From Rotaria socialis (taxonomy: Eukaryota), in the NCBI GenBank assembly GCA_905331295.1, contig CAJNYD010000017.1:124001-188000 (forward strand): DNA of 64,000 nt, written 5' to 3'. Under the pieces are notes generated by a model that was not told where the DNA came from, did not search any database, and saw only the letters and a program-made list of their open reading frames with translations. Both the position numbers and the translations under genes were made by a program. Of the stretch, positions 4,501 through 64,000 are shown in pieces. Every line of letters begins with the position of its first letter. Position 1 is the stretch's first letter.

Positions 4501-7500
4501 ACACACATTTTCGAGTCATTTTACAACAGAAGAGAGAAAATCAGCGTTTTATCCAGGCTTTCTTTTACGTGGAGCGATATAAAAACTGCAGGTGGGCGAC
4601 TTTAGAAACTTCATAAGGATCTATTCAATTTTCGGCGCTTAGCTTCTAGCGCACTAAATAAAATACTCGAAAGTAAAATCATACTTTATTATGTACGCAA
4701 CGTATTTCGATTTCCTTAACAATAGGCTGTAATTACGCTCGAATTCATTTATATTCAAGAGATAAATAAAAATATTTTTGTTTGTCTATATGGAAGTACA
4801 TTTCTTCATTTTTCTTTCACTTATTTTTTCAGAAGTGGTTTACTACGCATAAGTTTTGTATGACTAGACTGGTGTCATAAAAATTTAACAATTCATTTCC
4901 AACATAATATTAATTATCTCCTTAAAAAAGGTAACTTACCAGTAAGAATTTCTTTGATATACGCTTTTGTATTCAAATCATCGTACATAACGAATAAAAT
5001 ATGGTGCAGTATTTCTGCTACAATAGCATTATTATTAGCGGCTACTACTCCATAAGCAATAATTGACTCCACTGTAACTGGTGAAAGTGTTCGAATGAGT
5101 TCATCAGGATTTATTTTAATCGTGTACGTAGAAATATTTCTCTTTTCATAGAGCAACGTTGATGTTTTCGTAAAAAGTCCACGTTGTGTTGTATATTTTG
5201 TATCATATGGTAAACTATTTGAATCATAAGGAATAAAAAGATGATTAAGAAAATTTAATTGAACGTTAAAATTAAGTAAATGAATAAATTCGCCGCGTAA
5301 AGCAGCAAAAACATAATCTCCATCTAAATATAAAGTTCATACATAACTTATAAGAATTTAAAAAGAAAAACAGAGTCTCAAATTTACCAATGAGACCAAA
5401 ATGAACTCGACGAGATTGAAATATTTCCCAATGCCCTTGCTGTAATGATTTCGATAGATAAAGACTTCGACCTGAAAAGATATTTATTTAGTTTCCAGAA
5501 AAAAAAACAACAATAAATCGATTGTTGAACAGACCATGGCCAAGTGAAACAACTGCGTATTCAACTTTTTGACTTTCTTCCTTGAAAAAAAGGATTTTTA
5601 CTATGAAATATTCAATATTAAAACATTTATTTTACTTTCATTGTTGATTGCCAACAAAGAAAAAGACTTGTCTCACTGGAAAGTATTTCGAAAATCAATT
5701 GGCTTGATGCAGGTTCTAAAAATGAATTCTAGATATTTTAACAAAAACTAAAGTGGGTGCAACAAGTTTAGAGACGACGTATTTTTGACACTTTTCCTAA
5801 ACACTCTAAGCTAGAATTAGGCAGAGAAAGGTCTAAGTAGATGAGAAAAATTTCCTAGCACGAGAAATAGTTTTAAATAATAACATATCTCACAACTCTT
5901 TATGATCTCTATTGATGTATATACGAGCTCAGCGTGCGATATATACTGCTTATAGGTCTATTATTTTTATTGAAGAAATATCTTCTGTATTAGATGAGTT
6001 TGTATGCAAAACTGTGTCAATAGAATCGAGAGTACGGGAGTTAAAATTCTTGATATAGCAAATGGTGTTTACCCAAATACGATAACAGTAACTTAACAAG
6101 TACCTCTACTCACGATAGATCAGTTTCATGAATTAGATATTTACCCGGTAGTTTAAAATCGAAATCAATTTTCATCTAGAATTAAAGAATATTAAATTTG
6201 ATTCATAGAGAAATCGACTTACAATATTATCGAATTGGCCTCTAGCATTTATGGTAAAAGCTTTATAGACCAAGGCATCAAATTCGGTTGTTGGCGTTGC
6301 TTTTATTAATCCTGGCTGACGTGTTTGTATGACGTGTAATCGTTGTTGAATTGTATCCCATTGATAATAAATGCAGTTGCTTATTTGTGCATCTCTATCA
6401 ACAACATAGGCTTTATCCTATTAAATTGAAATAAAAAACAAACATTTTTTTCCTCCAATCTGTATATAACATACCAAAGCATTGCCACTATTAGGCATTC
6501 GAAATAGAGTGACGACTAAATAAAATAAAAATATTACCTATGATTTTTGTTTTTTTTCTAAATTAATTTCAAACCATCACGATTAAGTAACAAAATAACA
6601 TCGTTAGGTGCGAAATAGGCTCGGATTGAACTGGAACGTGGAAATTTAAGTGAAAATAAACGTCCTGAGTTTGATGAACCAATTTCAGCGACAAATACAT
6701 CAAAAGCATATGATTCTGTAAAGACAAAAACAATCATATTAACGAGTCTGTTCCTTTTAGTGATAAATCGAAGTTAAGCACATAGCCCGAACCCAAACGA
6801 ACTGAGTATCTTGAAAAGAGCTAGCAGTCGAATCAGATTAATTCTGAGATGTCTTACTTTCACAATATGTTTTTTCAGTGCACGCCACCGTTTCTTTAGG
6901 GTGAAATGCTTTTCGACTACTAAATCGCACGAGAAGTTATGCCCGTGAAATTCTGTTTCTATACAAAGTTTCAAGTAGACATCATCAACAGAATTTACTG
7001 GTGAAGAGATTATGACATTTGTTTTTAAGATAATACTGTAAACGTAAAACATCTCTGCAATAATCAGATAAGATCGTGAGATCTGCTTATAATTGTATAT
7101 ATATTCTCAGCTAAATAGCCATTGATCAGTTAGAGGAATTTCCTCTTGCGAACAATTTCCCAAAAAAAGATTATCATTTGAACAATTTATCACAGCTAAC
7201 CTGAACGTGTTACAAAGCCTATATTAGTATATTAGATATTGTTTTGGCAAACAAAAATATACAATCGAATAGAAAATACATTAACTTACAACATAATGAT
7301 CGTGATGCATTAATACTGGCATGTGTGATTTTGACGCATGATGGATGGCGATGATAGATCTTGCAAAAATGATAATAGAATAAAATTCAATTTCATATTT
7401 ATTAAATTGAAAAATAATTACTTTTTGATCACCGTCCATTAAGTCAACACCGCCGATGATTGATCGTGGAGTCGATGAATTCTATTTTTTATAAAATACT

Positions 7501-37734: not shown

Positions 37735-38862
37735 TCAATGAAGTGTCATCGTTGTACCGTTACGAGTAATACTTCGTTCTAAAGATAATGCTGGATTATA
37801 TCGGCCGAGAGCTTTTCGTAGAAAGAATTTTATTCTATCCATGAATATAGAACGAAACAAATGACTCGACAATGTATAAATATAAAATGATTTCGTAAAG
37901 TTAGCATAGTAAACCAATGTAGTGAATGACATTAAGAATGAACCGATAAGTCTGTTATAACCAGTTAGTGGTGGCGCAAGAACATAGTATGCATAGTAAA
38001 TCATACGGGTTAAAACCAATAATTCGCTGCATCCAACTTGAAAAAGCATCATCTATATACAAAACAAAACAGTAACGTCTGATTTAAATACTCGACATGC
38101 AGCTGAGTTTTTCGTTTTTATTATTTAACTACTTACCACAATTAATTCTGTATCCGTTTTTTCTTGTCGTCGTTGAGATTCGACTACTGTACCTGTATGT
38201 TGCAATGTTTTATTGGCTATGCGTCGTTTGGTTCGTCGAACATTCATAAAAGTAAGAAAACCAAAGGTAAACATCAATATATGAGGAATAATACCGAGCC
38301 AAAATACAACAAACATTCCATCGAATATTGAAAACGAACCATTTAACACACCACATCGTGGTCGAAGATCGTACGCAATTAGAATATGAATACATGATAG
38401 AAAGCCAATAAAAATAGATACTAATGTTGCTCGATAAGCTATTTTCATTTGACTAAATGAACGAAGACGAGCACTCACCGACGACGACATACATCGATCA
38501 ATCGATGATAACAAAATGAAATATGTGGCTATCAAGGGAAGTACTGAAACTAGATATGCACGCAGTTTACAATAAACTGGACTTGTATTAATCAATGTAC
38601 TACCAAGATGATCAGCAGCAAAACGAGATATGAGTCCAAAACTAATGGATACTAATTCAAACACAGCGGACATAAGGAAATAGAAAGCACATGAATTGTT
38701 TCGTAGTTGTGGTGCTGTGAAAGTAATAAAGTTGCACATACAACCAAAGATACCAATGACTAGTAGAATGATTGGTCCATAGTAAGTCATTTCACTACTA
38801 ACAATTTGTATTGTAGCTAGGGTGGTGGTTTTAATGGATACGGATGCATTCATCATAGACAT
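37735..38862 (-). CDS. Rhodopsin-class (family A-like) GPCR, two exons
   Basis: Seven hydrophobic segments; LRNNSCAFYF, CKLRAYL, SSIDRC (DRY position), SFYIYTLSSHLFR; intron 38136-38053. Confidence 0.85.
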
Positions 38863-41800
38863 TTCTTCGACTTTGTCTTATATTTACAATCCTATGAATT
38901 GATGTTTGTCACTGCAATTTTTTTGTCAATTATTGTATTTTTCTAGAAATACTGTTTAATGTCTAAATTTGTCTATGAATTCTTTTCGGACAGTATTGTT
39001 TTTTTATATGTTGGTGATCAATGGTAATATTGATTGCGGAGAGGGGTTCATTTTTTTCTAGAAAAAAAATAATAGAAGAGAGAGAATATATTGTTTTGAT
39101 GCGCTAGTAATTTACATTTCTATAGAGAGTCCAATGTTGAGAATGAAAATCTATGTCACGATAGCTTTATTATGATTTCTCCGGATGAGAGTACATAGTA
39201 AAAAAAAAGGAAAATATCAATGGAATCGATGTCTTTCAATAATATAGAAATCGTCTTATATGCTTTGTTTCATGGTTTCTTATATTTTCTCGTCTACTAA
39301 CATTATTTTGTTTATATAGAAACTAGATCGACTTCATCCTGAGTTGTTAAATAATCTTCCTTTCTCATTTCTAAGTTGTACTACTCAAGAAACATAACTA
39401 TCAGTGCAAAAATATGCTTTCATCATCAATCTATCTTGTTCTTTTCAGCAACGAATATTGTCTTAAAACTATTACCAAACCTATTCACGTAACAAACATC
39501 TGCTATTGTTCTCATCCATACCGATTGTGACTGTGTTTTGTTTTCAACAAAATCCGGCAGTTTCTAAGCATTGATCATCACTAACTTTTAATACTATTAG
39601 TCACATGCGGTGGCTTTATTTAAGTAGCTTAGCTATTATTTTGAGTGTTGCTTCATCTAAAATATAGTTTTCAACAATATCTGCTTTGTATTCATGTGAG
39701 ATGTACAATATTTTCTACAGAGAATAATTATGAGATCTTGCACTTAAAAGGAAGTCTTCGAAAATATAAAGATCTCTTTATACTGCGTATTTTATGCATT
39801 GATGGATGAGAATAACGATCTACAAACTCTAAGTGCTAATAATAAAATGAAAGCTGTAAAACGAATATTTATTTTGGTTTTATTGTTTCTCTTCTACTTC
39901 AAAATTATCAAAAACACACCCTAAAGAGATACATATGAACTCGTTTTTTTCCTCGAAGGTGTCATCTATTTTTAGATACTTTTACAAAATTTTAAAGATG
40001 ACCATATTCATTTAGCCTCTGTAAAACTTACGCTATTTGATACTGTTTTATTCTGACACTACGAATCATGTTCAGCTGTCTGTTTCTTATTTTTACTCTA
40101 ACATATCAAAAATAATTCATGAATATAGAGAGAATTGCTAATTTTAAAGAATATTGCTTCATTTCTTCTAGTGATTATGACTGTATGATATTTTCTGGAG
40201 TGTGTAAAGGAAACGATATTGAACACTAACAATTTAATGTTGTCCTTTTCAGACTTCGTCATCTTGAATTTAAAAAAAAAGCACAATAAAATTTTCTTTC
40301 TATCAAAACTCGTCGTGTTATTAGAACATTACTAGATGACTCCATTATATGTCTGTGTAATTGTTAATCTACGAGATCAATGTTCACCAACTGTACCTGC
40401 GATGAAGCATAATAAAGCATATCTCAATAGACGCAGATGTAAAGATAATAAATATTCATATCATTGTCCTTTAATGTAATAAAATACAATCGCTCTTGTT
40501 AACCCGAAGGCACAAGTGTTTCTTGTCATAAGTCATGTCTACAAGAAAAAGCTTCCTTTCATTAATATCTGTGAGAAAACAAATTATTGATACTCATCGA
40601 GATACCACTGTTAAAAATAAGGTTTCTATGTTCTTCAAGAGGAAATGCAAAGGTTAATAATTTACACTTGACTACGACCATCGGAGACCTTCTCACAATT
40701 AAAATTCACACGCATCACGAATTAGCGGATAAGACAAAATTAACATTTTTAATATAAACTAATTCACAGGAAGATCTTTACTTGGTCAAACAGTAAAATA
40801 TGATAGAAAAAAAGCTTCTTTTATCGATGTTCGTACCCATTCATTGCCCCATCCAAATGTAAATGACGCTATCAATTTGAATTTGAGTGTGGGCAAATGT
40901 ACTGATGTGTGAATTCAGCTTTCGATGAGACTATGAATCGGATATACTACCGATTACAGACAATACTAATATCCATAATGACAATTGGATGTTACAAACA
41001 ACGGAATTTAATAATGATAGAAGACACTTCTTTTTTTATTTTATCCCGCAGTAAAACTCTTCCTGTAATTTAGATGATTGAAAAATTTAATTAGCTGTTC
41101 CATGTTTTTCTTTTCTAAAATTTTCTCGTCTAACTAATTATAAAAAATATTTTTCTTTTGAAAATTACTGTCTGAGAAAGCTCAACAACCTAATTCAGTA
41201 ATTGACCTAGAAAAATGAATCTTTCCTTTGAGTTTAGTCTATCATTAATAAGACAAATCCCTAATTAATTCGTAGAAAGCAATCTGTTGACATGAATTAT
41301 GCTGGATTATAATCTACTTATAAAGATGAAAAAGTCAGATAGAATTTTATTTTAAAATCTGCATATTTTTCACAGACGAGTTAGCAGATACAAAAAATAC
41401 AATGTGTGTATTTTTCGCACATTTTCAAAGAAAGATATCTTCTCGACAAGATTGATAGATAAAAAAAGCAACGAAATAATTCCGAAGTGTATTCATAACA
41501 AGTCGAAAATTATTCAAAATCTACTTCATTGGAATGCATATTATTGGTACGATCAATAAAACGAATTTATGTTGTTTTTTCTTCTTATCCGTTTTGATCT
41601 TTGAACTGACAGTCCGATTACATTATGTCACTATTTCGACGATGAGACTCGAGCATTTCAATAGAAAATCGACTATATTCTTCCATCAGTTTTCTTCATA
41701 TGAACAATTGAATTATTCGAAAGATTGTATCAACATGACTTTATGTTACTGTTACATTTTATACTATGTTTATGTAGACTATAACCTTTCTTCGACAACA

Positions 41801-42065
41801 TTTAATCTAATAGGAAATCTTGACAATTGATAAACGTTACAATATTACCTTAGAGGTCGTACTGTACAAGTCGCATTTGTTTTATCGCTACCATTGGCTG
41901 GACAATATATTTATTGAATGAAAGATAACTGTCTAAATTCATAATAAAAGTATAAGACATTCATATCTTGTGTCCAAAGAAAATATGGTTAAAAAAGATG
42001 ATTTTATTATCAGAACTAAAAATAAACCTTCAGATTTATTTGAATTACGTCGATCATAATTTACA

Positions 42066-42989
42066 ATGAACTATTTACGTATTATTCAAAAAACCATTCT
42101 CACGATATCATCTATAAGACATTCTTCGACTATAACTATTCCAGCGTTAATAGATTCTTATCCAATCGAAGCAACAGTATTCGAACCAAAATCGCCATCG
42201 TCTGATTCGATATGTGTTGTGATTTCTGAAGCAACAGGCTCTCGTCGTCAATTTTATTTTCCATTTGCACAATACTTAAGTGAACAACATAATCTACATG
42301 TTGTGACATACGACTATCGTGGAATACATGAACGAAAACCAACGCAATGGAATCTTGTTGAACATTGGGCTCGACGTGACTGTGCTGGAGTACTATCATA
42401 TTGTCTTGACAAATATAATGAAGTTGTTCATGTAGGTCATAGCCTTGGCGGAAATATGCATGCACTTCTACCATCGCCTATAAATGAAAAAATTTCACGA
42501 ACAATTCTTGTATCAGCAACAAATTCTTATTTAATGTATCACAAATGGAATTTAGCTTTTCTTCTAACATGTTCATCACTTTACATTCTTCGCGAACCAC
42601 TTTGTAGATTTTATGGATATTATCCAGCACGTACTGTATTTCGTGCGGGTGTTGATATGCCATCAAATATAATTCGTCAATGGGCACGATGGGCATTAAA
42701 TCGTCAATGTTTTGTCGATGAAAATGGTCAAGTATTTACAGATGGCTTTCAATCACTCAAATGTCCTATTCTAGCTGTAAATTTTGCTGACGATGAATTT
42801 TACACACGTCAGGCATTCGACAAATTTACTGGACAATTTCATCAATCATCAAATATTCAAACTTGGCATTTACCAAAAGGTGGTCATTTTAGTTTTTTTA
42901 AAGAGAAGCAATCGTTAGAACTTTGGAACGAGATAGTTCGATTTATAAAATATGCCGATACAAAACTTCCTACTATTATAAATAAATAA
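42066..42989 (+). CDS. Intronless alpha/beta-fold hydrolase of bacterial predicted-hydrolase type
   Basis: ATGSRRQFYFPFAQYL, TYDYRG, nucleophile elbow GHSLGG, DMPSNIIRQWARW, candidate acid (DDE) and His (GGHF) residues; 307 aa with no introns. Confidence 0.88.
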   Translation: MNYLRIIQKTILTISSIRHSSTITIPALIDSYPIEATVFEPKSPSSDSICVVISEATGSRRQFYFPFAQYLSEQHNLHVVTYDYRGIHERKPTQWNLVEHWARRDCAGVLSYCLDKYNEVVHVGHSLGGNMHALLPSPINEKISRTILVSATNSYLMYHKWNLAFLLTCSSLYILREPLCRFYGYYPARTVFRAGVDMPSNIIRQWARWALNRQCFVDENGQVFTDGFQSLKCPILAVNFADDEFYTRQAFDKFTGQFHQSSNIQTWHLPKGGHFSFFKEKQSLELWNEIVRFIKYADTKLPTIINK

Positions 42990-43237: not shown

Positions 43238-43753
43238 TTATTCTTCATGACTTAAATGAATCAGTTTTTTTGCACGTACTATTTTAACTGGTGCTTGATG
43301 TTCAATTGCACAAATAATCATATGATCAAGATAAGAATCTTTACTAGCGAAACAATGATAACATAGTTGACATTTGAAAATTGTCTAAACAAAAATTCGT
43401 TTAATATTAAATTCACTATTTCTTTTTTTAATAGTCAAAGAAATACCATTGGTATTGACGAACGATTTATAATAAATGGTTTAACAGATTTCGATATTCT
43501 CGACGAAAGTATTAAACAAGCAGCACTGTTAGAATAGTTATTGAGGAGAATTTTTCTCTTTTTTGATATCATATTTTGATCAATATATTTTCGTTTCGTC
43601 ATAACCGGCTGCATTGCAACAAAACTAAAAAATGTTCGAATGAATAAAAACAAAATTTTACTAAAAAGTAATATTATACTTGTTTGGCGTAATTATTGAT
43701 GATGCTTGTAGATCAGACCTTTCGGTTGATATTCGAGTGAATAGTTGACCCAT
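43238..43753 (-). CDS. Small 3-exon protein with N-terminal MG and a C-terminal C2HC-type zinc finger
   Basis: Three exons splice in frame at GT-AG sites: MGQLFTRIST... / FVAMQPVMTKRKY...KKRK... / TIFKCQLCYHCFASKDSYLDHMIICAIEH...HEE*. Confidence 0.7.
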
Positions 43754-46610: not shown

Positions 46611-46996
46611 AACTTTCATTCGTATTCCGTATCTTTCCAAACAGCTATTTCGAAAATTTATTCTAGTGAAACATCGGTTATTTAAACATTACAATCTCAT
46701 CTTCCAATAGCGCGCATTCTTGTGCGGGTCAGTGTGTCTGTGGATTGTATTTTTTATTGATAGCCACTCCCTCAAGCCACATATTTTGTTGTAATGTCGT
46801 TCTTCTTTTTCTGTTGATAATAAAACGACATGTCATGAGAAAATCACATCATCGTTTATTTTTGTGAACGAGACATTGATACTATTAATTTCGTACATCA
46901 GTGGATATCTGCAGTTGAGTTGTTTGTCACAGCATTATCTTACATTACGAATTATTCAACAGAATTACTAACAAATTTTCTTGATTTTTAAAGAAA

Positions 46997-47103
46997 GTGC
47001 TGCTCTGGCAGGTCGATGTTGCCATCAACCCGCATGATTTCGTCATCGCAACATGTATTTGATCAGCGAAGATCTTTTACCTCTTGGTAAGTTTATAATA
47101 AGC
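46997..47103 (-). ncRNA. Spliced-leader (SL) RNA gene, copy 1 (variant leader)
   Basis: GCTTATTATAAACTTACCAAGAG|GTAAAA followed by the conserved TTGCGATGACGAAA block and the 3' hairpin GCGGGTTGATG-GCAA-CATCGACCTGC. Confidence 0.8.
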
Positions 47104-47239
47104 AATTTAACATCGTTGGTCTGTAGGACACGATATTCTTCTCGTTCTGACACATCACTCGCTTACATTCTTCTTTGTTCTGTACGGAAAGAGTAGAGAC
47201 AAAAATAATTTCGTGCTCTGAACCTCGACGAATAAAGTT
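47104..47239. promoter_or_regulatory. Divergent spacer between SL copies 1 and 2 with conserved upstream motifs
   Basis: TCGTGYYCT at about -29/-30 and ACGA at about -12/-13 upstream of each leader; the same motifs and spacing occur upstream of copies 3 and 5. Confidence 0.6.
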
Positions 47240-47344
47240 GCTTATTACAACTTACCAAGAGGTAAATGGCCTTTACTGATGAAAAACAGGTTGCGATGAC
47301 GAAATTGAGCGGGTTGATGGCAACATCGACCTGCCAGAGCAACA
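47240..47344 (+). ncRNA. Spliced-leader (SL) RNA gene, copy 2
   Basis: GCTTATTACAACTTACCAAGAG matches the bdelloid SL exon as I recall it (GGCTTATTACAACTTACCAAGAG). It is followed directly by a GT donor, with a TTACC/GGTAA stem over the donor, a 3' GNRA hairpin and a T-run; ~105 nt in total. Confidence 0.88.
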
Positions 47345-47723: not shown

Positions 47724-47829
47724 GTGTTGCTCTGGCAGATCATTGTTTCCAACAATCCGCACGATTTCGTCATCGCAACATGTATGCGATCAATGAAGAT
47801 CTTTTACCTCTTGGTAAGTTGTAATAAGC
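47724..47829 (-). ncRNA. Spliced-leader (SL) RNA gene, copy 3
   Basis: Same 22-nt leader plus GTAAAA; 3' hairpin GCGGATTGTTG-GAAA-CAATGATCTGC. Confidence 0.85.
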
Positions 47830-47871
47830 AATTGTCTTCGTGGAGATCCAGGGCACGACACCCCACTTGTN

Positions 47872-48321: not shown

Positions 48322-48427
48322 GTGTTGCTCTGGCAGATCATTGTTTCCAACAATCCGCAGAATTTCGTCATCGCAACATGTATGCGATCAATGAAGATCT
48401 TTTACCTCTTGGTAAGTTGTAATAAGC
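48322..48427 (-). ncRNA. Spliced-leader (SL) RNA gene, copy 5
   Basis: Same 22-nt leader plus GT donor; AATTCTG immediately before the 3' GAAA hairpin. Confidence 0.85.
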
Positions 48428-49564
48428 AATTGTCTTCGTGGAGATCCAGGGCACGACACCCCACTTGTCTTTACACTTTTCATCAACGAAGCCGTCCGAT
48501 CAATGATTTCTCAAGTTCAATAGAATTGTTAAAGATGGCAGTAATGTCGTCGACTTAATAAGGTCGTCTGGAATAAAGCCACACAGGGATGAATCGCAGA
48601 GCTTGAATTTTTGAAGTCGAACCTATGGAAGATAAAAGTAATATACGTTGCCCAAATTTAATAAAATAATTCGAAGAAGATTTACGAAAAAAGGAACTAA
48701 TGAAAAAACTAAAATTTGATGATAGCATTGAAAATCATCTAATTGATTCAAATCAAGACCGTGAGAATGATAAACTGACCAAAATGGTAAATGTCATATA
48801 GTTCAGTCTCTTCTATCTTAAATGACACCCAATTATCAAGCAAAAATCTCATCTTAGATTTATTTCTAAAAGTGAAGGTATGAATGATAATATAAAGAGT
48901 ACTGGTGTTTGAATTATGAAATAAAACTTCACCAATAAGAGAATATTTCTAATGAATCAACAAACGAACCATCTGTAACTTTCGACTTCGTATAAAATGA
49001 TCAAGATGAAATTTCATTTAGAATTAAATTAATTGGAGTACAAATTTTGTGTATGTTAAGTTTCGCCTTAGGAAACGTCTTCATAATAGTCAATCGTCTT
49101 GGAAACAAAAAAACTATAGAACTTTTTTATTAGACGTGTTTTAGTTTTATTAATGTGCAGGTTGATGATAACATCGACCTATCAGAGTAACAGCTAATAA
49201 GTGGAATATATTTATTCAAGAACATACCGGTTGATATATATCCTGTTTGGAAAGAATTACTTTCCGAAACTGAGATATCATAATGCGATGAAACCAGTAA
49301 ATGGATAAAAATATATGACTTTTTACAATGGAAAAAAGAGTCGTTTCATGATTATATGTAGGAACTTCTCGTCATTTTAAGAGGAATTTTATGTAAATAT
49401 CATATCCCCTGATCGGTTGAAAGATACGTGTATCTTCAAACAAGTAGTTTTCAATTGGTAGACATAATCAATACAATAAGAATCGTATTCATTATTCTAT
49501 GTGTTGTTAAATCCATGAATAATGTGAATCCGAAAAGGCTATGTTTAAAATAGTATTTTTTTTA

Positions 49565-52418: not shown

Positions 52419-54331
52419 TTAAAGCGACAACGAAGGAAAATAGTCATAAACATCTTTCGGATAGACCATGGATTGTTCAGCAATTAATTGTTTTATTTTA
52501 GCACAATTCCGTCGTGTTTCACCTCTTGTAAAGTTGTTTGTCACTATTTTCAAATTAACATATTTAACTTTTAATTCAGTTAAACGAGGTAGATGGGTTT
52601 TTGTATCATTGAGAAAATGTTCAATATAATGAATGTGTGCACCAGTGATGTTAAGTGAAACAAGATACGGGTATTTAACAATTGAGCGCCAGTCGTTTTC
52701 ATAAAGATGACGCTCGCGAGATCTCCAAAAAGGTGGTTGAATATTCTTAATACTTAAATCTTTAAGAAATGGAAAAGCTTGAGTAAGTCGAATGAAAAAT
52801 TCATATTTGAATGCGTCTTGATCCCATAACATCAAATGAGTAACAGAAGTAAATACAATGTTTGGAATATTATTTCCGATCTCTTCGAGACGATGAAATT
52901 TAACTGGGAGTGAAAAAACTCGACAAATCGTTTCCCAATCGTCGAAGTAATCCACCATACAAGCCACTTGTCGATATTGTATATTTGTAAAAGTGCTTAG
53001 AATATCTAAGTTAGATATACGTACATCTGGATCAACAGGGCCATGCTTAGAAGCGATATAAAATGTGAATGTATGAAGTCGTGGCATATGAATAAGAATT
53101 TCATTATCAAGATGAGTGCCAGCGATGAACGTGGAACCAGCCGATATATATATATATATATATAAATTTAATTCTTTGAGATGCGACATTCGACGAAGAA
53201 GAGGTAAAACCACACTGTCATAATCTTCAGTACTCTTATAACATGTTAATGAGAAACATTCTAAATTAGGTAGAGGATCCTGAAAAATTCAAAAAGCAAA
53301 TATTAATAAATTCAGTTTGTATTAGTTGCGCTCAGAAATAAATTATTACGTATTATACATTTACCGAAATTCTACTTTTAAATTTTAATAATGCAGAAAT
53401 CTCATTGTATCTTGCAGTTTTATTTAACTTTGTTTTATCTTCGATATTAAACATTACTAGTTAAAACAGCATAACAACACGAAACATAAACTCACCATGT
53501 TGTACGATGTTGAAGTTTTATAGATATAATTAACCTGAAGGATGAGTGAAGTTAATTGTTTGAGACGACCATCAAGTAAAGCAAGACAATCATCAAAATT
53601 ATTTGTATTAATACATAATTCAGTAAGAATCGAAGAGGAAAAAGTCATTGGTGGTAAACAGTATAACGATAAAGGTGGATAATCGTTGACAGATGATGGC
53701 AGAATACTCAAATGGTTTAGATTTTTAAAGAAATCCAAGATCGTTACATAAACATTGTTCGTATCCTTTGTGAGTACTTGTTCAATATAGTTTTCATTAC
53801 TGATAAGAATAAGATCCGTAATTTGTTGTTGATCAATATGTTGAAAGAGAGAATTATCTAAATGACATTCATATATAATTTAATCTGAACAGCTAAATAT
53901 CTTTTTTATGCTAATCTTTTAAGTTCATTAGACATGAATATCTCACCCGTGAAATAGCGTGGAACGATTTCTCTGTTGAAATTGAAAATTTTAAGTTCAG
54001 TGAGATTAGGATAGATGCCAGCGCCAAGAATACATTCAATGGAAGCAGATTCAACACTGAGTGATTTGACATTTTGTTGAATTCTTGGTAAGACATCAAT
54101 ACGAAATCGATTTAGCATGGAGTCAGAAATTGAACAAATCTCATCGGCTGATTGAGATATGGAAACGAAATTAAGGATGTTACTGAAGATTTGCTCTTGT
54201 GCTATAATATCAAGTCGTTGATTGTTGATACCAAATAAAGAATAAAGAACATCAATATTGTCGAGTTTCTTTAAAATGAGAAATAATATTTCATTTGGAA
54301 GATCAAGAAGATGAACAATACGTTGACTCAT
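52419..54331 (-). CDS. F-box domain protein with LRR-like C-terminus (bdelloid-type family), three exons
   Basis: N-terminal LLDLPNEILFLILKKLDNIDVLYSL; repeats such as LPRLTELKV and FPFLKDLSI; exons 54331-53948, ~53858-53496 and ~53280-52419 are in frame. Confidence 0.85.
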
Positions 54332-55023
54332 CTTTAAATGTGATCATGTCGTTCTCATCAAGACAACATACATATATATAGTTATCTATTGAGTCTTTGT
54401 TCATATAGATCTGAAACAGACTAGACGAATTGGACGTGAATTAACGAATATGATTGGTGTGTCGCTGTGCTAGAAAAGTATCGAAAAGAAAAAATTGCAG
54501 CTGGGAGTGTTCATTTTACGCCTCGCTATTTTGGTATTTATCTATGAGCATTTTCTGTCAACGAAATCAAACGAGTAAATTATTTGCATAAATGTAGTTT
54601 CTTTTATATGTAGATCAATTATCGTAAAGTTCTTTGTAAAGAATTGAGACCACATCGAATAAAATTTATTTAATGATTAAAAATTTGTGACTACAGCTTG
54701 ATTGCGGACATTTTTTTCCTCCAATTAAGAAAAAAAAGTCCGCAATCAACAAGACGCGTAATAGAATTAATGGCTGTTCTTGAGACAAGAAAAATCAAAT
54801 CATGCATCATGTTTGAAATGTCGAAAGTTAAAACAAATGTGTTCGATGTAATATAAGAGGCTTTGTAGAGTACGATGATCGATAAGGATGAACAAAAGCA
54901 ATTGAATCGAAATGGGAACGTAGAGTACAAGGAGCAATAACATCGTCGATAGTTCCTTTCGGTATTTTATCGTCATCATTGGGTTGTCTTAATTCTTTGG
55001 CAACCAAAACAACGATCTTCTTC

Positions 55024-55338: not shown

Positions 55339-57059
55339 TTGATATTCTATGCTGTATGCCATGCGGGCAGATTTGTTTTTTCAGATAACATGCAAGCGGA
55401 TAGACTAATAGTGATAAATAATGTGAATCAAAACTTTCAAACAATGGATACCATTTTATTTAAAGAAGGTTGAGATGATGATCGAGCATATAGAACTGAT
55501 TCAAAACAAGCTGATCAAAAATGATCAATTGATTATTAAAAAGAGTTATTCACAAGTTATTGCAATAATTCAGAATATCTTTGTTTGTTTTCTCACATTT
55601 GCATGAAAAGGAAACGTTAACTTTTTTTTCTTCCTCTTAGTCCTGGTCATCTCGCTCTCAATGTTATAAATCATCGGCTTTATCATTTCTTTGGAAAGCG
55701 TTGATAAAAAATCTAGCAAACCATTTTTGAGAGAGATCAAAACTATGCCTAAATCTAAAACGAAATTATATTTTACTTCTAATAGGTTTTTCTTCCCACC
55801 CTCTTTTATACAATCGATTATATACGTCCAATTACAAACGACTAAATGTATGCGAGATGTTGGTACAGATTATAACGAGACTAACACCCACAAACACATT
55901 AGAATGCTTATCAACATGATCAGTAAACTAGTAGTGGCTTCTTAAACACATATTTTAATACCACTGGTTGGTATTAAGCTAATAGCTTTTGTGATTAGCT
56001 ACATAATATTTTCTTATTAAGAAAAATCTCAGCTATAAATAATTTTGTTATTTTTATTCTAAAAAATAATTACTGAAAATTTCAATAGTGAGAATAGCCT
56101 ATCGATGTTTTAATATGAGTGTGAATACTTGAACTTTACTTTGTCCAATGATGAAGTTACCTAGAATAAAAACGTATTCATCGTTGCCAACTTTGCGCGT
56201 GCTCTATTTTTAAATATAATTTTTTTCTTCTTCTTTTCTTCCAATCAAATGTCCTATGCCATTTGCAAGAATCCATATTTTGTCTTTCACATGGCTGGAT
56301 CATTTATAGACATTTTCAATGTCAATTTTTTCTTGTTTTATTTCTATAAATTCTCTATTTTCTTATCAATCGAGATGTTGAATTCAACGTCAACTGCACT
56401 TGTCATTTAACATTCAAACAAAAGACCAAGGACATCGAACCTCAAATATTATCCGACGTACTTGCGGATACTTCACCAGAAGATTATGATAGTTATTATG
56501 ACAAGCTGAGAGTACGTAAAACAGGATTTGTTATTTTTATTCATATTATTTTTCTTTCAAATCTTTCTAGAAAGACAAATACTGTTATCAATTAGTTGAA
56601 TAATTGTATATTGAAAATTCCTATGTTCGACTTGAAATGTCAATGAAAAAGATACTCTTCAAAATATTTCTATTCATTTTGAATTGATATAAGATAACGG
56701 TGCTCGATCACGCGTATAAAGCATAGACAGTAAATTGAATAAACGTAAGATAGTTAAAATAATTTTATTTCCTTGATTAAAATAACTGAATTTATCACAT
56801 TCGAAAATTTATAAAATTCGATGTGCACGACTTCAATCAAAATAACTAATTGCTATTTAAAAAAAAATAACAACTGCTTGAATTCGTTCGTTTATACGTG
56901 TTTTGCATAGTTTGTAGGCATACAGCTATTCAAAAAAAAACGTCATAAACATATCCTTGCTTTATGCAAAAAATATACTTGACCATGAACGTGTCCTTAA
57001 GAAATAAATTTTGTTGTTTTTTTTTCTGTCTATTTATGTTCGCATCGATATTTCTTTAG

Positions 57060-58473
57060 ATGAATGTATTTTCTGGCTATTCGTCAAATATATTAACAAT
57101 TAAAAATTTTCCATTAATATTCAATGATAACGATCGACGAGAATTTTTAGAACATTTCGGTGTTGTTCGTGTATGTTGTTTAACTCGATTTAAAAACATA
57201 TCAAATATTATTGTTGCTGATTTTGGTTCAAGTTCACAAGCTTCGCAAGCGCTGAGACGTTTACATCAACTGGAAATACTTGCTCGTCGATTAGTTGTAG
57301 AAAATTGTCCATTAGAATTAGCTCAGTTAGCTTTCAATAGTGCTCCACAATCTTCGGATGATGACGAAGAGAGTGCTTCATTGCATGGTATTTCACCAGG
57401 TATAAATCAAATTCGTTATTCATTACCATCGGAAAGACTTACATACGCTTATCCACCTATTAATGATATAATTTTAATGAATATAAACAGTGCACTATTA
57501 TCAGTGCCATCGTTTTACACTCAGGTTCTTCATCTTATGAATAAAATGTCTCTCCCATGTCCAGTAGTGGCTGGTAAAATATTTTTAAAAAAATTATTTT
57601 CCTAGCTAATAAATTGATTTAATAGATTCAACGCAACCTGAACGAATTTTATCAAAAATTAGTGTTGCATGTCAAACAGATGAAATGACTAAGATCGAAG
57701 TAATCAATATGGATACAGATGAAGATGAAAGTGAAATTGATGATGGCGAAGAAGAACAACGCGTCAAACGACACCATCGATACATTTTACGAACACCAAT
57801 TCATCAAGGAACTGTTCCAACAATACGAACAAACCTGAATGTTAATACTGAGAAAATCAAAAAGGCACCAATCCAACTAAAATTACCTCCAATGTTAAAT
57901 TCATCTCGAGTATGTTATTTTACATAGGAAATTCTTCATAGAATTCTAAATAAAAAAAAATCTCTAATTTAGATAGAAGTTAATAATTCAATACCAATGG
58001 ATATTCCTATGCAAGGCTTTGGTCGATTAGAAGCCATTCAATCAACCATTACAAATATTAGTATTGTAAATCCAGATAAAAATCAACTTCAACCTCTCCG
58101 ATTAATTCCACTTGAAGAAATACGAAAGCATCGTTTGAGTGAAAATCAATTGCGTCTAATTGATAATGGTCGTTTATATAGAAATTATGAACGTGGTCAA
58201 ACATCACAACGTCTCTATATAAAAAATCTTGAAGTCAAACATGTTGATGAACGTCTATTACATGCAATATATGATCGATATAAACAGGATTCTTCTGAAA
58301 TTGAGATAATTCTTATGCGTGAAGGTAAAATGAAAGGTCAAGCATTTGTAACATTTCCTAATGAAGCTATGGCTTTACAAGCATTGAATGATACAAATGG
58401 TTTTATTTTACATGAAAAACCAATGATTGTACAATTTGCTCGAACAGCAAAACCAAAAGATATTGTCGTCTAG
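57060..58473 (+). CDS. RNPC3: U11/U12 snRNP 65K protein (RNPC3), minor spliceosome, three exons
   Basis: RRM1 (ALRRLHQLEILARRLVVE); signature YAYPPINDIILMNINSALLSVPSFYTQVLHLMNKMSLP; RRM2 RLYIKNL...LMREGKMKGQAFVTFPNE...TNGFILHEKPMIVQFAR. Confidence 0.92.
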
Positions 58474-58609
58474 GAAAATATGTGCCTTTTTTTGTTGTGA
58501 AGTTTTTTTTAAATATTAGGTCAGAAAATTTTGAAAATGTTTTTTTTATTGTTATTATCGTTGTGTTCTTTTATTTTAACGAATATTAAACGTATTTTGC
58601 AGACAAAAT

Positions 58610-59128
58610 ATGATACGTTCTAGTTGGATAAATGGTTTGCTTGGTGGTCTTCTAATATCATCATGTTGTGTAATTCAATTATTTCTAAATCTATTTGGTA
58701 TTGGTTGTGCTGGACTGAATACTCTATTATTCCCTTATCGACCATTGTTTATTTCATTGACAGTTATTTCGTTAACTTATTCTTTTTTTCATTATCGTCC
58801 GTCGAAATTACATTTCACTATTGTAATTATCTTTACATTGATTCTTTCATTTTCACCTGAACTCCTTCAAATGTATAATAATCAATTTGCAAGAAATGAT
58901 TTTGCCGATAATGAAATCTTTATTACACATTGGAAAATAATAGGAATGCATTGTGAAGCTTGTCGTGCAGCTGTTATACAATCATTAAGAAAACTTCACG
59001 GAATTCTCAGTGTTAACGTTGATCTTGAAACTGGTCATGCTGAATTAACCGCAAGTCATTTTATACAGACAGACACTGTTATTCAAGCTGTACAATCAGC
59101 TGGTTTTCAAGCTAATAAACTTGTTTGA
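58610..59128 (+). CDS. Intronless MerT-like membrane domain fused to a heavy-metal-associated (HMA/MerP-like) domain
   Basis: TM1 with a vicinal Cys pair (SSCC), LFPYRPLF after TM2, further TM helices, then GMHCEAC and an HMA-type tail (VNVDLETG...AVQSAGF). Confidence 0.82.
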   Translation: MIRSSWINGLLGGLLISSCCVIQLFLNLFGIGCAGLNTLLFPYRPLFISLTVISLTYSFFHYRPSKLHFTIVIIFTLILSFSPELLQMYNNQFARNDFADNEIFITHWKIIGMHCEACRAAVIQSLRKLHGILSVNVDLETGHAELTASHFIQTDTVIQAVQSAGFQANKLV

Positions 59129-61641
59129 AGCCATAAGAAAAGTATATTATGTGTAAAAACAAAACAAAAAAACATTCTATTAGAAATAAAATGAGGGATT
59201 TTCGTGCAATAAGTAAATACATGATAATGTGGCAAGCATTTCAATTTATATGTTTTATATATCAACATATGAAATATATATTAGTTGTGATAAGAACTAC
59301 TCTGATGAATGTATAATATCCTGAATGTGTAGTTTTATTATATAAGAGAATTTTCGGGACTTCCATTCATAAAGAAAGGATGTAGAAAAGAGAAAAAAAA
59401 CTCTTCAGTATAGATGCACAGACCTTTATCTTAAGTGATTTCTTTTAGTAAGCAACCAAATAAAGAAGTCTAGCGATAATAATATTATCAAAATTCGCCA
59501 TTGCAAACACGACAATTTCGCTTGTGAATAATAATCATATAGAAAAACTATAGAACAGTAAGTAAAATCATTCGAACGTAATGCACAAGATGAATACGGC
59601 TTTCTATACAAATAGTAACATACTCCAAGGCGAGAGATAAAATATAGTAGATATATATATGCTACATGGTAATCAGCACACTGACAACTAGTGACCTCTT
59701 TCATTGGCACAGAACGAACCCCGCAGTCAATAGTTATTCGTCAAAAATTGAATTGTATATTTTGGATACCGTATAAGTATTGTGTCAATCTACAGCGTAT
59801 GATTAATATGTATGTGTGCAGCCCACGCCTACCAATTCACCTTTTGTTTTTTCATGCGTGCAATCACTGGCAATGAAAACACTCTATTTTTCTCTCGTAA
59901 GTGTCGATCTTTGTTAAGATAATTTGTAAAAAGTAAAATACTACTCGATTGGAAACTAGTGACACGTGTGGTTAGGTATGATTGCATTGTAGAATCTATT
60001 ACATTTGAGAAAATTGACTTTCGTTTTTTTACTACGACAGCTGTTGCTTTCAATAAAAAAATTTATTTCTTGATTGATTTGTCTTGTGCTTTTGATGTTA
60101 GTCAGATGCTTGCTAATATGTTTCAGATTATGTTATACTTGTTATTTTCTTCCCTTCTGTTATTTTGAAGTATTTCAATATATATTACTGATTGGGTGAT
60201 ATCGACGTACCGCTCTGCGACTATTGGCTTTATTCTATCTATTCTCAGCGATGACATAAGCTGTTCCACGCTGAGTCTTATTTTTACAAAAAATGACAAA
60301 AATACACCTGGTATCAGCACATTTTATGTCACCACTTCTGTTGTTGCTTATACTCAGCAGCCATCTTATTCTTAACAAGCAATCCACATGTCTGGCTCTT
60401 CGTTTTACGGATGGTAAGCAGACAGATTTATTTATATTTGACCTTAATGTAAAACTCTTTTTCTTCAATATTTGTTTTTCTATAATACATTCGCGATAAT
60501 GACGAGATTTATCACATTCGTTTTTTTTCTCTCATTCAGTTACCCGTTTGGTTATTTACTCTTTCAAAAGAATCATAAAATAAGTATGATACTATTCATC
60601 AACATTACTCTAACTTTAGAGAATGGAATGACTTGCCATTAACGATCGGAATATGTCCTCTTTCAGTGAGAAATTATTTGCTTGTTTGCTGCCCGTCCCC
60701 CGTCCCCCCTATTCAAAGTTGCAAATGCCAAAAATCATTCAAAGAAAAAGAAAAAGAAAAGCGAATAGAAGGTGCGAGGAAAAAATCATAGAAACAGCGT
60801 TAATAGAACTTGTCAACACGTTCTCTGATAAAATCGTAATCGAGTAGGTGGTTGGAAGCTATGAATAATTTGAGTGGCAAAAAAAATGGCATGCACACAT
60901 GCAAAACTGACTTCAATGATTGACATATCCTTCAATTCTTCTCGATTAGATTCCATACAGACATGTACGGAAGAAGAAAGCAAGAAAAAGTAATGCTGCG
61001 TTGTATAAATCAATAGATAAATATACGGATTAAAAGCTAAAACAACACTGCATAAGGCGCAATGCTTGAAGCCAAATACTCTTGGATCATCACATTTAAT
61101 TCAATTTATTCCTTTTTTCTGTTGTCCGATGATGTCATCGTTGATCAAAGAATAAATCGAATCTCTTCGTTGTTCTCTATGGTAGCATCATCATCATCAT
61201 CATCATCGTTCGATGAATAGTATCCTCTTAAAATGAGAGTTAGGAAATCAAGCAGCGTTTTCTTTTTGCTTTCTATGAATGACTAAAGTATCTTCTATTT
61301 TTTTCTTCTTTGCTTGTTTTCTTTTCTCTGCGTTGAATAGAAATGCATGGGCAATTTTTTTCTTCGTCTGTGAACGTTCTCTACGCTTTTCAATACAAAA
61401 AACAGAGAATGAAAAAGCTATGAGAAGGAAAAAACAGCATTTCTTATTCGAATAGAGTTCGAACAAAACAAGAACTCTATAACACTACCGACACACATTT
61501 ATTCACACACTGGTAATGACGATCGGGTGTTCTGTATGCGTGTGAATCGCGGCACACAGGCACGCAACGTTTATGGTCAGAGCAATAACTACTGTAAATC
61601 GAAACATTTGTATGAAAATACAAAAATCAAAATAAGAGAAA

Positions 61642-63089
61642 ATGTTGAAGATATTTGTGAATAACAATGCTGCTGTTTTATTTCTTGTTGTAATTACAAC
61701 AATCGACGCTTCACGTATACTTTATCTACCGCTTCCGAAAATACGTTCGTCACATCATGAATTAAAACCATCGTCATTAATCCTACGAGGATTAGCAAAA
61801 AAACCAATCACCAATGAATTTATACCATTCTCAGCATTGGAGCGAAATATGTACGAGGAACAAGATGAAAATGATGAAAGTAATATAGAACTCTTTGATG
61901 TAGTTAAATCATTCTAAATAGGCGATTAGGTAACATTAAGTCTTTATCAAGTAGGTCTAAAAAGAACGAAGTGCTGAACACAATTCCAATTAGAACTAAT
62001 TGCTAAAAGCATATTAAATATGAACGTTTTGTTTTATTTACGTCCGGTTGTATTACGCACTGGGTGAATGAGTTTGTAGAAAAAAAAGTTTCTAATAATA
62101 ATCCTATTGGGAGTGCATGATTGAGTAGTAGAAGCAAGTGTGAACAAGTAGCAATAATCATAATTATTTATTATAAATTCTCTTTTATTGTCTTCTATTT
62201 TATATCTGTAATAATTATTTCTTTAACATACAGAGATATAATTTTCAATATTTATTAGAGTTTGCTTTTTCACTTTCATAGAACGAGATGTTTTGGATTG
62301 GGAAGAATTGGTGGACGTTGAATTAGCAAAACATCTTCTTTCCGGTAATAGGAGACGAAGTGGCGTCTATTTGTTTTTATTTATTCATTTGCCAATGCAT
62401 TTTTATATTTATTTTATAGCAGATAATAATGAATTGGATTATTTACTATCGTTGGATCGGGCAACACGGAAACCGAGTAAATTAACAAGAAATCATGATA
62501 GTCTAGATTCAGCAAGTGACAATCTTTCTCGACGTGATCAAAAGCAAGACGCCAGTGAACCATGGGCAAGCGATACTTCTATTAGTCGAACAGCACGTTT
62601 ACAATTGAATGGTGCTGTAGATAATTTGGAACGAAGAAAACGACGCAATGATGTACTATTTCTCGGTAAGTTATCATTGAATATGAAATAAATAATATTT
62701 TCAATAACTAAATAAGATAATTGTTGTATTCAGCAGTGTCCAAGGGCTGAGAAATAGGAATTCCTAATGTGCCGAGGAATTGTCCGTGTCGCTGTGATAA
62801 TTCCTAGAGGAAATGGGAATCAACTATCGGTTCCCTCACAGTTACACCATTCACGAAAGTCGCGATATTGCCGTTTTAAAAAGTTATCGTGAATATTCCA
62901 TATTTTTACCTTTAGTATGCAAAGAACTGTAGGGGAACTGATGAGAAATTCTTAATCCTCAGTCCTTGGACACCCCTCGAAATCATTTTATGCTATTCTT
63001 AAATAAAATATTCTTTTCATAGTTATTGTTGGTACAAGTAGTTTAGTTGGTATTGTGGGTCTTATCGCAGCCGCTATTTTCTGGTACAA
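61642..63089 (+). CDS. NPDC1/CAB-1-like single-pass membrane protein (5' part; continues past the last recognised exon)
   Basis: Signal peptide, acidic luminal region, basic cluster RRKRR, then NDVLFL|VIVGTSSLVGIVGLIAAAIFWYK, a TM segment resembling invertebrate NPDC1; four exons visible, the last ending at a GTAAGT donor. Confidence 0.55.
62736..62973. mobile_element. MITE-like element in an intron
   Basis: Terminal inverted repeats gtgtccaagggctgag / ctcagtccttggacac plus an internal inverted pair ggttccctcacagtt / aactgtaggggaact; no clear TSD. Confidence 0.65.
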
Positions 63090-64000
63090 GTAAGTGGTCA
63101 TGTTTTGTTAATTATATTCTCTAAAATTTATGTGAGAAGGCTCTATTTTTTGCGAGATATTCGACAAACATGAATTGAAATTACTTTTTTTTTATAGCTT
63201 CTTAAAATACTCTACAGGTCTTCTTTCTATCAGCTTAGTTTCTTTTTTTCTTTACAAGACCATATATAAATACAAGGCATAGTAGACGTATTTTTTTAAA
63301 TGATTACTTTGTAAAAGGGACAAGTTCAACGCATTGAAATACTTATCTAAACGTAGGGCTCTCATTATAGAAGAATTCTTGTCGATATTAATGAAAAGTC
63401 TTAATTCTAAATTGAACTTAGTCATACTTCATCTATTCGCACGATTTAAGAAAAATAATGAAAGTCCTTTGCCAAATCTGTTATATACGATCAAAACCTG
63501 CATAAGATTTGCTTCTATTTCTGTAGGTAGCAAATTTCCTTGTAGATGATCATAGAAAAAGAAATTGTGCAATAAAAGTTCTTGTCGCTAATCATTATTT
63601 CAATGACGCTGAAGAAAATGAAATTTTTTGAGAGGACAAAAATCAACACTAGAAAAAAAAGTCGATGTCATTATTAGACTAAAAAAGATATACAATGTTA
63701 AGAAAACTTTCCGTGATTTTCTGTTTTCAACAATATTAGGCATAGAATGCAGCAAAAGTACAAAACGAAGTTCTTTATTTAATTCATGTAATTACGGTCG
63801 ATTAGGAATATATTACTATGTAATAAATTTTATTCTATTATTACAGCAAAAGATCTGTTCTTTTCTATCTCTCATATTTGACAAGTCATAAATTTCAATA
63901 AATTTTATTGATATTGTTGGCTTTGCCAACTGTCATGACATGTCTTACCACTATCAATAATGTATTAGATAAAAACGCATAATATTAGCCAGCTAATATA

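Follow-up and report, generated by a model that had tools for sequence, protein, structure and literature searches.

An expressed bdelloid gene joins a eukaryote-type MerT-like membrane domain to an HMA domain and may encode a soft-metal relay

Why should an animal genome contain a gene built like MerT, a type of transporter that has been treated as a bacterial mercury protein? The gene in question occupies positions 58610..59128 on the plus strand of the window, by which we mean the whole 64,000-nucleotide stretch of Rotaria socialis DNA that was analyzed. A preliminary description had reported an intronless open reading frame of 172 aa with a series of metal-transport motifs, and translation confirmed it, with no stop and every listed motif in place. 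A vicinal cysteine pair, Cys19-Cys20 (58664-58669, +), lies in the first hydrophobic segment, and the family-specific Cys33, part of GCAG (58706-58708, +), lies in loop 1. PYRPLF spans aa 42-47 (PYRP, aa 42-45) and GMHCEAC spans aa 112-118 (58943-58963, +). The protein thus consists of a eukaryote-type MerT-like membrane domain with three predicted membrane segments (aa 5-86; 58622..58867, +) and a C-terminal HMA domain of the MerP/CopZ fold (aa 104-171; 58919..59122, +), which probably sits on the lumenal or outside face.

Pfam, NCBIfam and hhalign agree on the proposed MerT-like plus HMA architecture, and the comparison with the individual profiles that had been suggested as a check divided the protein in two. 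The HMA domain scored above the Pfam cut-off (PF00403, 45.2 bits vs 24.8) with the GMxCxxC motif present, whereas the membrane domain stayed below the cut-off for MerT (PF02411, 27.9 bits, E 2.5e-6, cut-off 32.9). The best NCBIfam model was MerTP_fusion (NF033556; 54.9 bits, E 7.9e-15), again below its equivalog cut-off of 180, and with NF010314, which bears on MerT membership, the score was 29.5 against a cut-off of 150. An hhalign comparison with bacterial MerTP covered 162 columns with a probability of 99.1 at 26% identity. In structural models, helices were predicted at residues 5-29, 44-62 and 66-96 with pLDDT of 51-71, a low to moderate confidence for the membrane domain; the hydropathy peaks of segments 1-3 are 2.0, 1.2 and 1.8, making segment 2 weakly hydrophobic. 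The HMA domain was modeled at pLDDT 80-90 as a ferredoxin-like fold, and its best Foldseek match was MerP (1osd, TM 0.88 on target). Overall, the models were confident for the HMA domains and moderately so for the membrane part; as to a fold match for the membrane domain, the best 60 of 67 sequence matches and both fold searches gave HMA-type domains only.

The closest bacterial counterpart in design is MerTP (NF033556; Adhaeribacter WP_185269809.1), with which the rotifer protein shares a MerT-like domain (of three predicted segments in the rotifer protein), a cysteine pair in the first membrane segment (TM1), PxRP, a C-terminal HMA domain and the same inferred sidedness. In contrast to MerTP, to which it is 26-28% identical, it lacks the loop-2 cysteine pair, adds the loop-1 Cys33 and a QLxLN motif, and is encoded in an animal spliced-leader (SL) unit rather than in a metal-resistance operon. 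MerT and MerP of Tn21/Tn501 share with it the vicinal TM1 cysteines, PYRP and the MerP-fold domain; however, the rotifer protein is one polypeptide with no equivalent of Cys76/Cys82, and its gene adjoins none of merA, merR and merP, its neighbors being the RRM gene and BCAS2 remnant described below. The protein is therefore MerTP-like by architecture but falls outside MerT and MerTP by profile cut-off, second cysteine pair and genomic context.

Is the gene part of the host genome? A word-based search yielded 180 scored candidates, 67 of which were relatives (the protein of the window itself plus 66 others at 50-81% identity); every member of these 67 that carries an organism name is a bdelloid, from Rotaria, Adineta or Didymodactylos, and the 90% cluster of the window protein includes proteins from both Rotaria magnacalcarata and R. 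socialis. C19, C20, C33, R44, C115 and C118 are invariant in 52/52 aligned sequences. Comparisons with four related loci gave dN/dS values of 0.19-0.32 in all four pairs, indicating purifying selection, and GC3 is 0.15, compared with 0.16 in the neighboring host gene. Genes on either side are intron-bearing animal genes. RNA contigs, taken as such on account of their splicing at GT..AG introns and their leader and poly(A) ends, cover the open reading frame without an internal joint. The informative contigs came from two runs, X1 (>99% identical to the window) and X2 (a related species), with X3 and X4 covering only bits of neighboring genes. An X1 contig reaching from 58070 to 59212 terminates in poly(A), 22 bases past the AATAAA signal (59185-59190, +), with a non-templated A run behind the addition site at 59212. 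Because synteny, transcripts, GC3 and dN/dS concur, the gene is integrated in the host genome and not a contaminant; the same four lines, together with the bdelloid relatives and the invariant residues, also ruled out a chance reading frame.

The preliminary description had further held that this is not a standard metazoan family, and a wider search bears this out. Searching 50% cluster representatives returned 2175 matches at E up to 0.001, and most of the 150 listed of these share a signature of SSCC, twelve residues, CxG, PxRP and then an HMA domain. Of the roughly 216 non-bdelloid members that we collected, 26 are named to an organism and about 190, which may include an animal, are not, the names being drawn partly from the best 120 of 161 and the best 120 of 646 matches. 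The named members are fungal (Mortierellaceae, Thamnidium, Funneliformis, Obelidium) or belong to Coccomyxa, Volvox, Pycnococcus, Cymbomonas, Chromera, Amoebophrya, Gocevia, Planoprotostelium, Flectonema and Choanoeca, a range that takes in fungi, green algae, alveolates, amoebozoans, a diplonemid and a choanoflagellate. No animal and no prokaryote occurs among the 26 named non-bdelloid relatives (of about 216 in all). Fungi, algae and protists share a MerT+HMA family that has a cysteine signature of its own. This wide microbial-eukaryote family escaped the preliminary description, as did the age of the gene, which appears to predate the bdelloid genome doubling, and the SL-trans-spliced, operon-like unit to which it belongs. 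Database labels for family members are automatic (e.g. 'HMA domain-containing protein').

Prokaryotes were covered by two scans of 185,579 genomes. A peptide pattern gave 14 stretches and a DNA pattern 74 (best 15 bits against the family profile), none of them family members; since the DNA pattern recovers 109/160 non-bdelloid and 61/83 bdelloid members, this absence is a partial one. Plasmid MerTP proteins match the rotifer protein at 24-28% identity. In the ESM Atlas, eukaryotic proteins make up most of the nearest cluster and bacterial MerTP-like clusters follow, which we take as a lead only. Among possible viral carriers, 1/45 stretches passed, with merely a 28-residue match, and another search gave 0/58. 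Two family copies lie head to head (~5032-6396) in marine metagenome contigs L011 and L012. We found no paper describing a eukaryotic MerT+HMA family, in a search largely outside subscription journals. The available part of PMC9812998 reports merT to be absent from Cyanidiophyceae and remarks on such genes in other eukaryotes without detail, the portions of PMC3466566 and PMC12460157 at hand contain nothing on the family, and the strings 'MerT' and 'mercur' are absent from 3 supplementary files of PMC4632278.

How the bdelloids came by the gene was addressed with trees built on domain units, reduced from 239 to 120 by dropping similar rows without a name and to 55 for the careful run. The bacterial set comprised 9 MerT/MerTP rows, four of which had no name and were classed as bacterial by judgement. 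Bdelloid units form one group (support 100/98). Together with every other eukaryote-type unit, they are separated from the bacterial MerT/MerTP rows by a branch with support of 100/95. Support for a sister of the bdelloids is 83/2, so that the tree names no donor; in the best tree the bdelloids adjoin the bacteria, outside all named eukaryotes, a placement with weak support (88/56). AU tests rejected a grouping of bdelloids with fungi (p 0.0017 and 0.0015) and with the second unit of the choanoflagellate protein (p 0.0012), whereas a grouping with its first unit fits the data too (p 0.136). The Choanoeca protein is a tandem, and its second unit falls in an algal-type clade (100/99).

These results separate the earlier claims about origin into parts. 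A bacterial or a non-metazoan eukaryotic donor had been allowed for: the eukaryotic option fits best, and a direct bacterial source is disfavored by the 100/95 split and the lack of prokaryote members in the two genome scans. For horizontal acquisition itself, the closest named relatives are indeed non-animal (26/26), but nesting within a donor clade was not obtained. Because the tree names no donor, we regard transfer as likely, not proven: judging from its relatives and their tree, the gene probably came from a microbial eukaryote and entered the bdelloids ahead of their genome doubling. Such a donor is in line with the foreign genes of bdelloids described in the available text of PMC4632278, many of which are old and, among species-unique foreign transcripts, 28.7% most like protists. 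Old foreign genes are nothing unusual in bdelloids; the family exposed by this one is less ordinary.

With the same role for its protein, the gene could instead go back by vertical descent to an early eukaryotic or opisthokont ancestor, with loss from nearly all other animals, which we consider unlikely. Its appeal lies in the spread of the family over many eukaryote groups, fungi and a choanoflagellate among them, in the deep branching of the bdelloids outside any donor clade, in the AU result for the first choanoflagellate unit and in the small share of non-bdelloid relatives (26/~216) that carry a name. Against this, none of those 26 is an animal, the groupings with fungi and with the second choanoflagellate unit are rejected, and the Choanoeca protein is itself a tandem with one unit among the algal types. 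Vertical descent would also need many independent losses, whereas bdelloids hold many old foreign genes, as far as the accessible part of PMC4632278 goes. Elsewhere in the window, two other genes may be of foreign origin: a CorA-like Mg2+ transporter gene in at least 2 ORF pieces (27358-29337, +; Pfam CorA) and a single-ORF, 308-aa alpha/beta hydrolase of possible bacterial type with host-like GC3 (42063-42989, +).

What might the protein do? Its orientation was deduced from loop charges. Loop 2 of the bdelloid proteins (19 units) contains 59 K/R and 0 D/E, while loop 1 contains 1 K/R; the charge bias was positive in 55/63 and negative in 0/63. These charges place loop 2 in the cytosol and hence the HMA domain on the far side of the membrane, so that in the rotifer protein it would be lumenal or outer. 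N-glycosylation sequons after segment 3, present in 28/110 eukaryote-type and 2/10 bacterial units, are uninformative on topology. We also considered whether the two bdelloid paralogue groups, A and B, are oppositely oriented and rejected the idea, their loop charges being alike by eye in the alignment. The cysteine pattern differs between eukaryote-type and bacterial units. Cys19-Cys20 align with the Cys24/Cys25 pair of MerT and are invariant in 121/121, while the loop-1 cysteine occurs in 110/110 eukaryote-type units and 0/10 bacterial ones. Conversely, the loop-2 pair is present in 10/10 bacterial units, in 0/19 bdelloid units and in 6/110 eukaryote-type units.

In bacteria, MerP passes Hg(II) to Cys24/25 of MerT, from where it moves to the cytoplasmic Cys76/82 and on to MerA, a hand-off that runs from periplasm to cytoplasm (PMC5715351, available text); MerT has three membrane segments (PMC3466566, likewise). 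In the rotifer protein, the lumen- or outward-facing GMHCEAC domain would bind a metal ion and hand it on to a three-thiol site formed by Cys19, Cys20 and Cys33 near the HMA-side membrane face, after which the ion would go to a cytosolic acceptor. The metal would most likely be Cu(I), a choice made on physiological grounds. The overall reading that we favor, and to which as a whole we give roughly an even chance, is that this expressed and conserved bdelloid gene was acquired from a microbial eukaryote before the genome doubling and encodes a putative relay for a Cu(I)-like soft metal from the lumen or outside to the cytosol. If the family moves copper or another soft metal over the ER or plasma membrane, it would constitute a metal route independent of CTR and the ATP7 pumps.

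The HMA domains of Atx1/ATOX1, CCS and ATP7A/B are cytosolic, being either soluble or carried on P-type ATPases. The rotifer domain shares their HMA fold and CxxC metal motif; unlike them, it is attached to a small MerT-like membrane domain and probably faces the lumen or outside.

The mercury role suggested at first was not supported in its mer-type form, as bdelloid units lack the cytoplasmic cysteine pair through which Hg passes on to MerA (0/19). The accompanying remark that no merA is seen in the window stands, with nothing merA-like among the 9 ORFs scanned. A broader version, in which the protein is a trap or detoxification device for toxic metals (Hg/Cd) and possibly came directly from bacterial MerTP, strikes us as improbable. 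It is favored by the retained TM1 cysteine pair, PYRP and MerP-like domain, by the two additional cysteines of one paralogue group (CCPCC), by the location of bacterial MerTP genes among metal-resistance genes, and by a basal place next to the bacteria with which the tree (88/56) is compatible. The missing cytoplasmic pair, the lack of an adjoining merA, the low identity to bacterial MerTP (24-28%), the lack of members among prokaryote matches (0/14 and 0/74) and a position behind housekeeping splicing genes instead of a stress cluster all count against it. In addition, MerT without MerA raises the Hg sensitivity of cells. Mercury detoxification therefore fits less well, given that hand-off pair, adjoining merA and stress-gene context are lacking and the surroundings are those of housekeeping genes.

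A thiol-redox relay without metal transport, in which disulfides would pass between the lumenal CxxC and the cysteines of the membrane domain, is a weaker rival of the metal relay and seems to us quite improbable. DsbD and VKOR-type systems provide the comparison. Five conserved cysteines on what is probably the oxidising, lumenal side would suit such a role, as would the eukaryote-specific third cysteine, the frequent replacement of the Met of GMxCxxC in relatives and the CxxC that tandem forms would carry on each side. However, the soluble domain is a canonical HMA domain by sequence and fold, its best matches being metal chaperones and Cu-ATPase domains and not a thioredoxin fold, and the ancestry is MerTP-like.

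Relatives of the rotifer protein bear on where a metal relay of this kind might reside. KDEL-like [ED]L ends were found in 23/160 non-bdelloid members against ~2.6 expected, with the caveat that relatives are not independent draws, and a later set gave 8/56 against 1.1 expected, compared with 0/26 for HMA-only controls. No such end occurs in the bdelloid members (0/81), and an ER residence for them is therefore borrowed from relatives; 12/81 have a KKxx-like end, which may simply correspond to the final HMA strand. Algal-type relatives carry two units in tandem (e.g. P0085-P0119), often with KDEL-like ends. Where two units are so joined, the inside-charge score is higher for the second in 51/55 pairs, and an extra upstream hydrophobic segment precedes 47/64 first units. 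An opposite charge bias and an additional N-terminal segment are what an inverted repeat with an HMA domain on each side would need, and the algal-type tandem proteins resemble such a repeat in these sequence features. In such proteins the acceptor of the metal would be the second, cytosolic HMA domain.

How would an acquired gene of this kind be expressed? Directly upstream lies a gene with two RRM domains (57060..58473, +; 432 aa, three exons; RRM_1 is its only Pfam match), which we take to be RNPC3 (U11/U12-65K) and which is SL-trans-spliced at 57058 in both X1 and X2. Ahead of it is a BCAS2/SPF27 remnant (56375..57046, +), the first unit of the putative operon. Although decayed, as shown by a stop in codon 12 and by insertions, it is still spliced and transcribed, and its RNA contigs extend as far as the acceptor that follows. 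The RRM and MerT/HMA genes lie on the same strand, 136 nt apart, a distance within the roughly 100-150 nt expected in SL-trans-spliced operons, and the T-rich spacer from the upstream stop to the ATG (58474..58609, +) contains a trans-splice acceptor AG at 58601-58602. At the start of one X2 contig, a 3' portion of the spliced leader of rotifers is attached at 58601; PMC3795323 tabulates the leader sequence. No leader was seen in X1 at the MerT/HMA gene, and its contig bridges the RRM gene and the MerT/HMA gene without one; this contig (58070-59212) is assembled over two genes and does not show a single transcript.

Synteny extends this arrangement to other bdelloid loci. The RRM gene is directly upstream in 6/6 group-A loci, two of which are near-identical. 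Group-B paralogues have CCPCC where group A has SCC; in two of their loci, L007 and L009, BCAS2 stands ahead of the MerT/HMA gene, while L008 shows neither BCAS2 nor RNPC3 in ~460 upstream bases. BCAS2 is intact in L004, L007 and L009. L004 has the order BCAS2, RNPC3, MerT/HMA, followed by an opposed Na+/H+ exchanger that is common to L007 and L009 (minus strand; L004 6844-8325, L007 3643-4158, L009 3143-4816); the exchanger has no match in the window, where it must therefore have been lost or moved. From the RNA contigs and this synteny, BCAS2, RNPC3 and MerT/HMA appear to form an operon-like unit with MerT/HMA last. Two paralogue groups in matching blocks (L004; L007/L009), together with the spread over Rotaria, Adineta and Didymodactylos, place its age before the genome doubling, and we infer a single ancestral three-gene unit that later underwent reciprocal losses. 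The gene was probably captured by a housekeeping operon for splicing factors, as its final cistron, and would be expressed through the host spliced leader without a promoter of its own.

PMC7986045 (2021) states that no operons had been reported in rotifers, so the locus is a concrete candidate operon in a phylum without reported ones. In its most far-reaching form, which we put forward tentatively and think less probable than the relay itself, the family would be an undescribed group of MerT-derived metal channels of the secretory pathway in microbial eukaryotes, ER-retrieved, with a lumenal HMA domain and an algal-type inverted repeat; bdelloids would be the sole animals with it and would run it from a true SL-resolved operon. 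If this were true, rotifers would have their first demonstrated operon in the bdelloid unit.

A parallel is offered by the RFC140-flp operon of Hydra, where, according to the available text of PMC3273482, an intronless gene of likely unicellular origin also sits just 3' of a housekeeping gene, behind a T-rich spacer with a spliced-leader acceptor. The encoded proteins are unrelated, and the Hydra operon was reporter-tested (PMC3273482, same portion), whereas the rotifer one is deduced from RNA contigs and synteny. Compared with what that part of PMC3273482 describes, the rotifer unit has a spacer of 136 nt and a decayed first cistron. The locus illustrates how a foreign gene may gain expression by landing behind a housekeeping gene.

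The window also holds four copies of the spliced-leader RNA gene, at 47239-47261 (+), 47808-47830 (-), 48406-48428 (-) and, as a variant, ~46990-47097 (-). Each has the 23-nt leader with one mismatch (in the fourth, a 1-base insertion), a GT donor and ~100 conserved bases; Rfam gave no match to these copies and 0 matches over the window. Between this cluster and the operon-like unit is an F-box-like gene (52419-54343, -; weak Pfam F-box). Downstream of the MerT/HMA gene, a spliced gene (61636-63095, +), hydrophobic at its start and furnished with dibasic sites, resembles a neuropeptide precursor by impression; it has no Pfam match and is kept downstream in L003-L006. Finally, a receptor-like membrane gene (37735-38877, -) and a short exon (43241-43384, -) also occur near the MerT/HMA gene in L004, L005, L007 and L009, as parts of the same synteny block.
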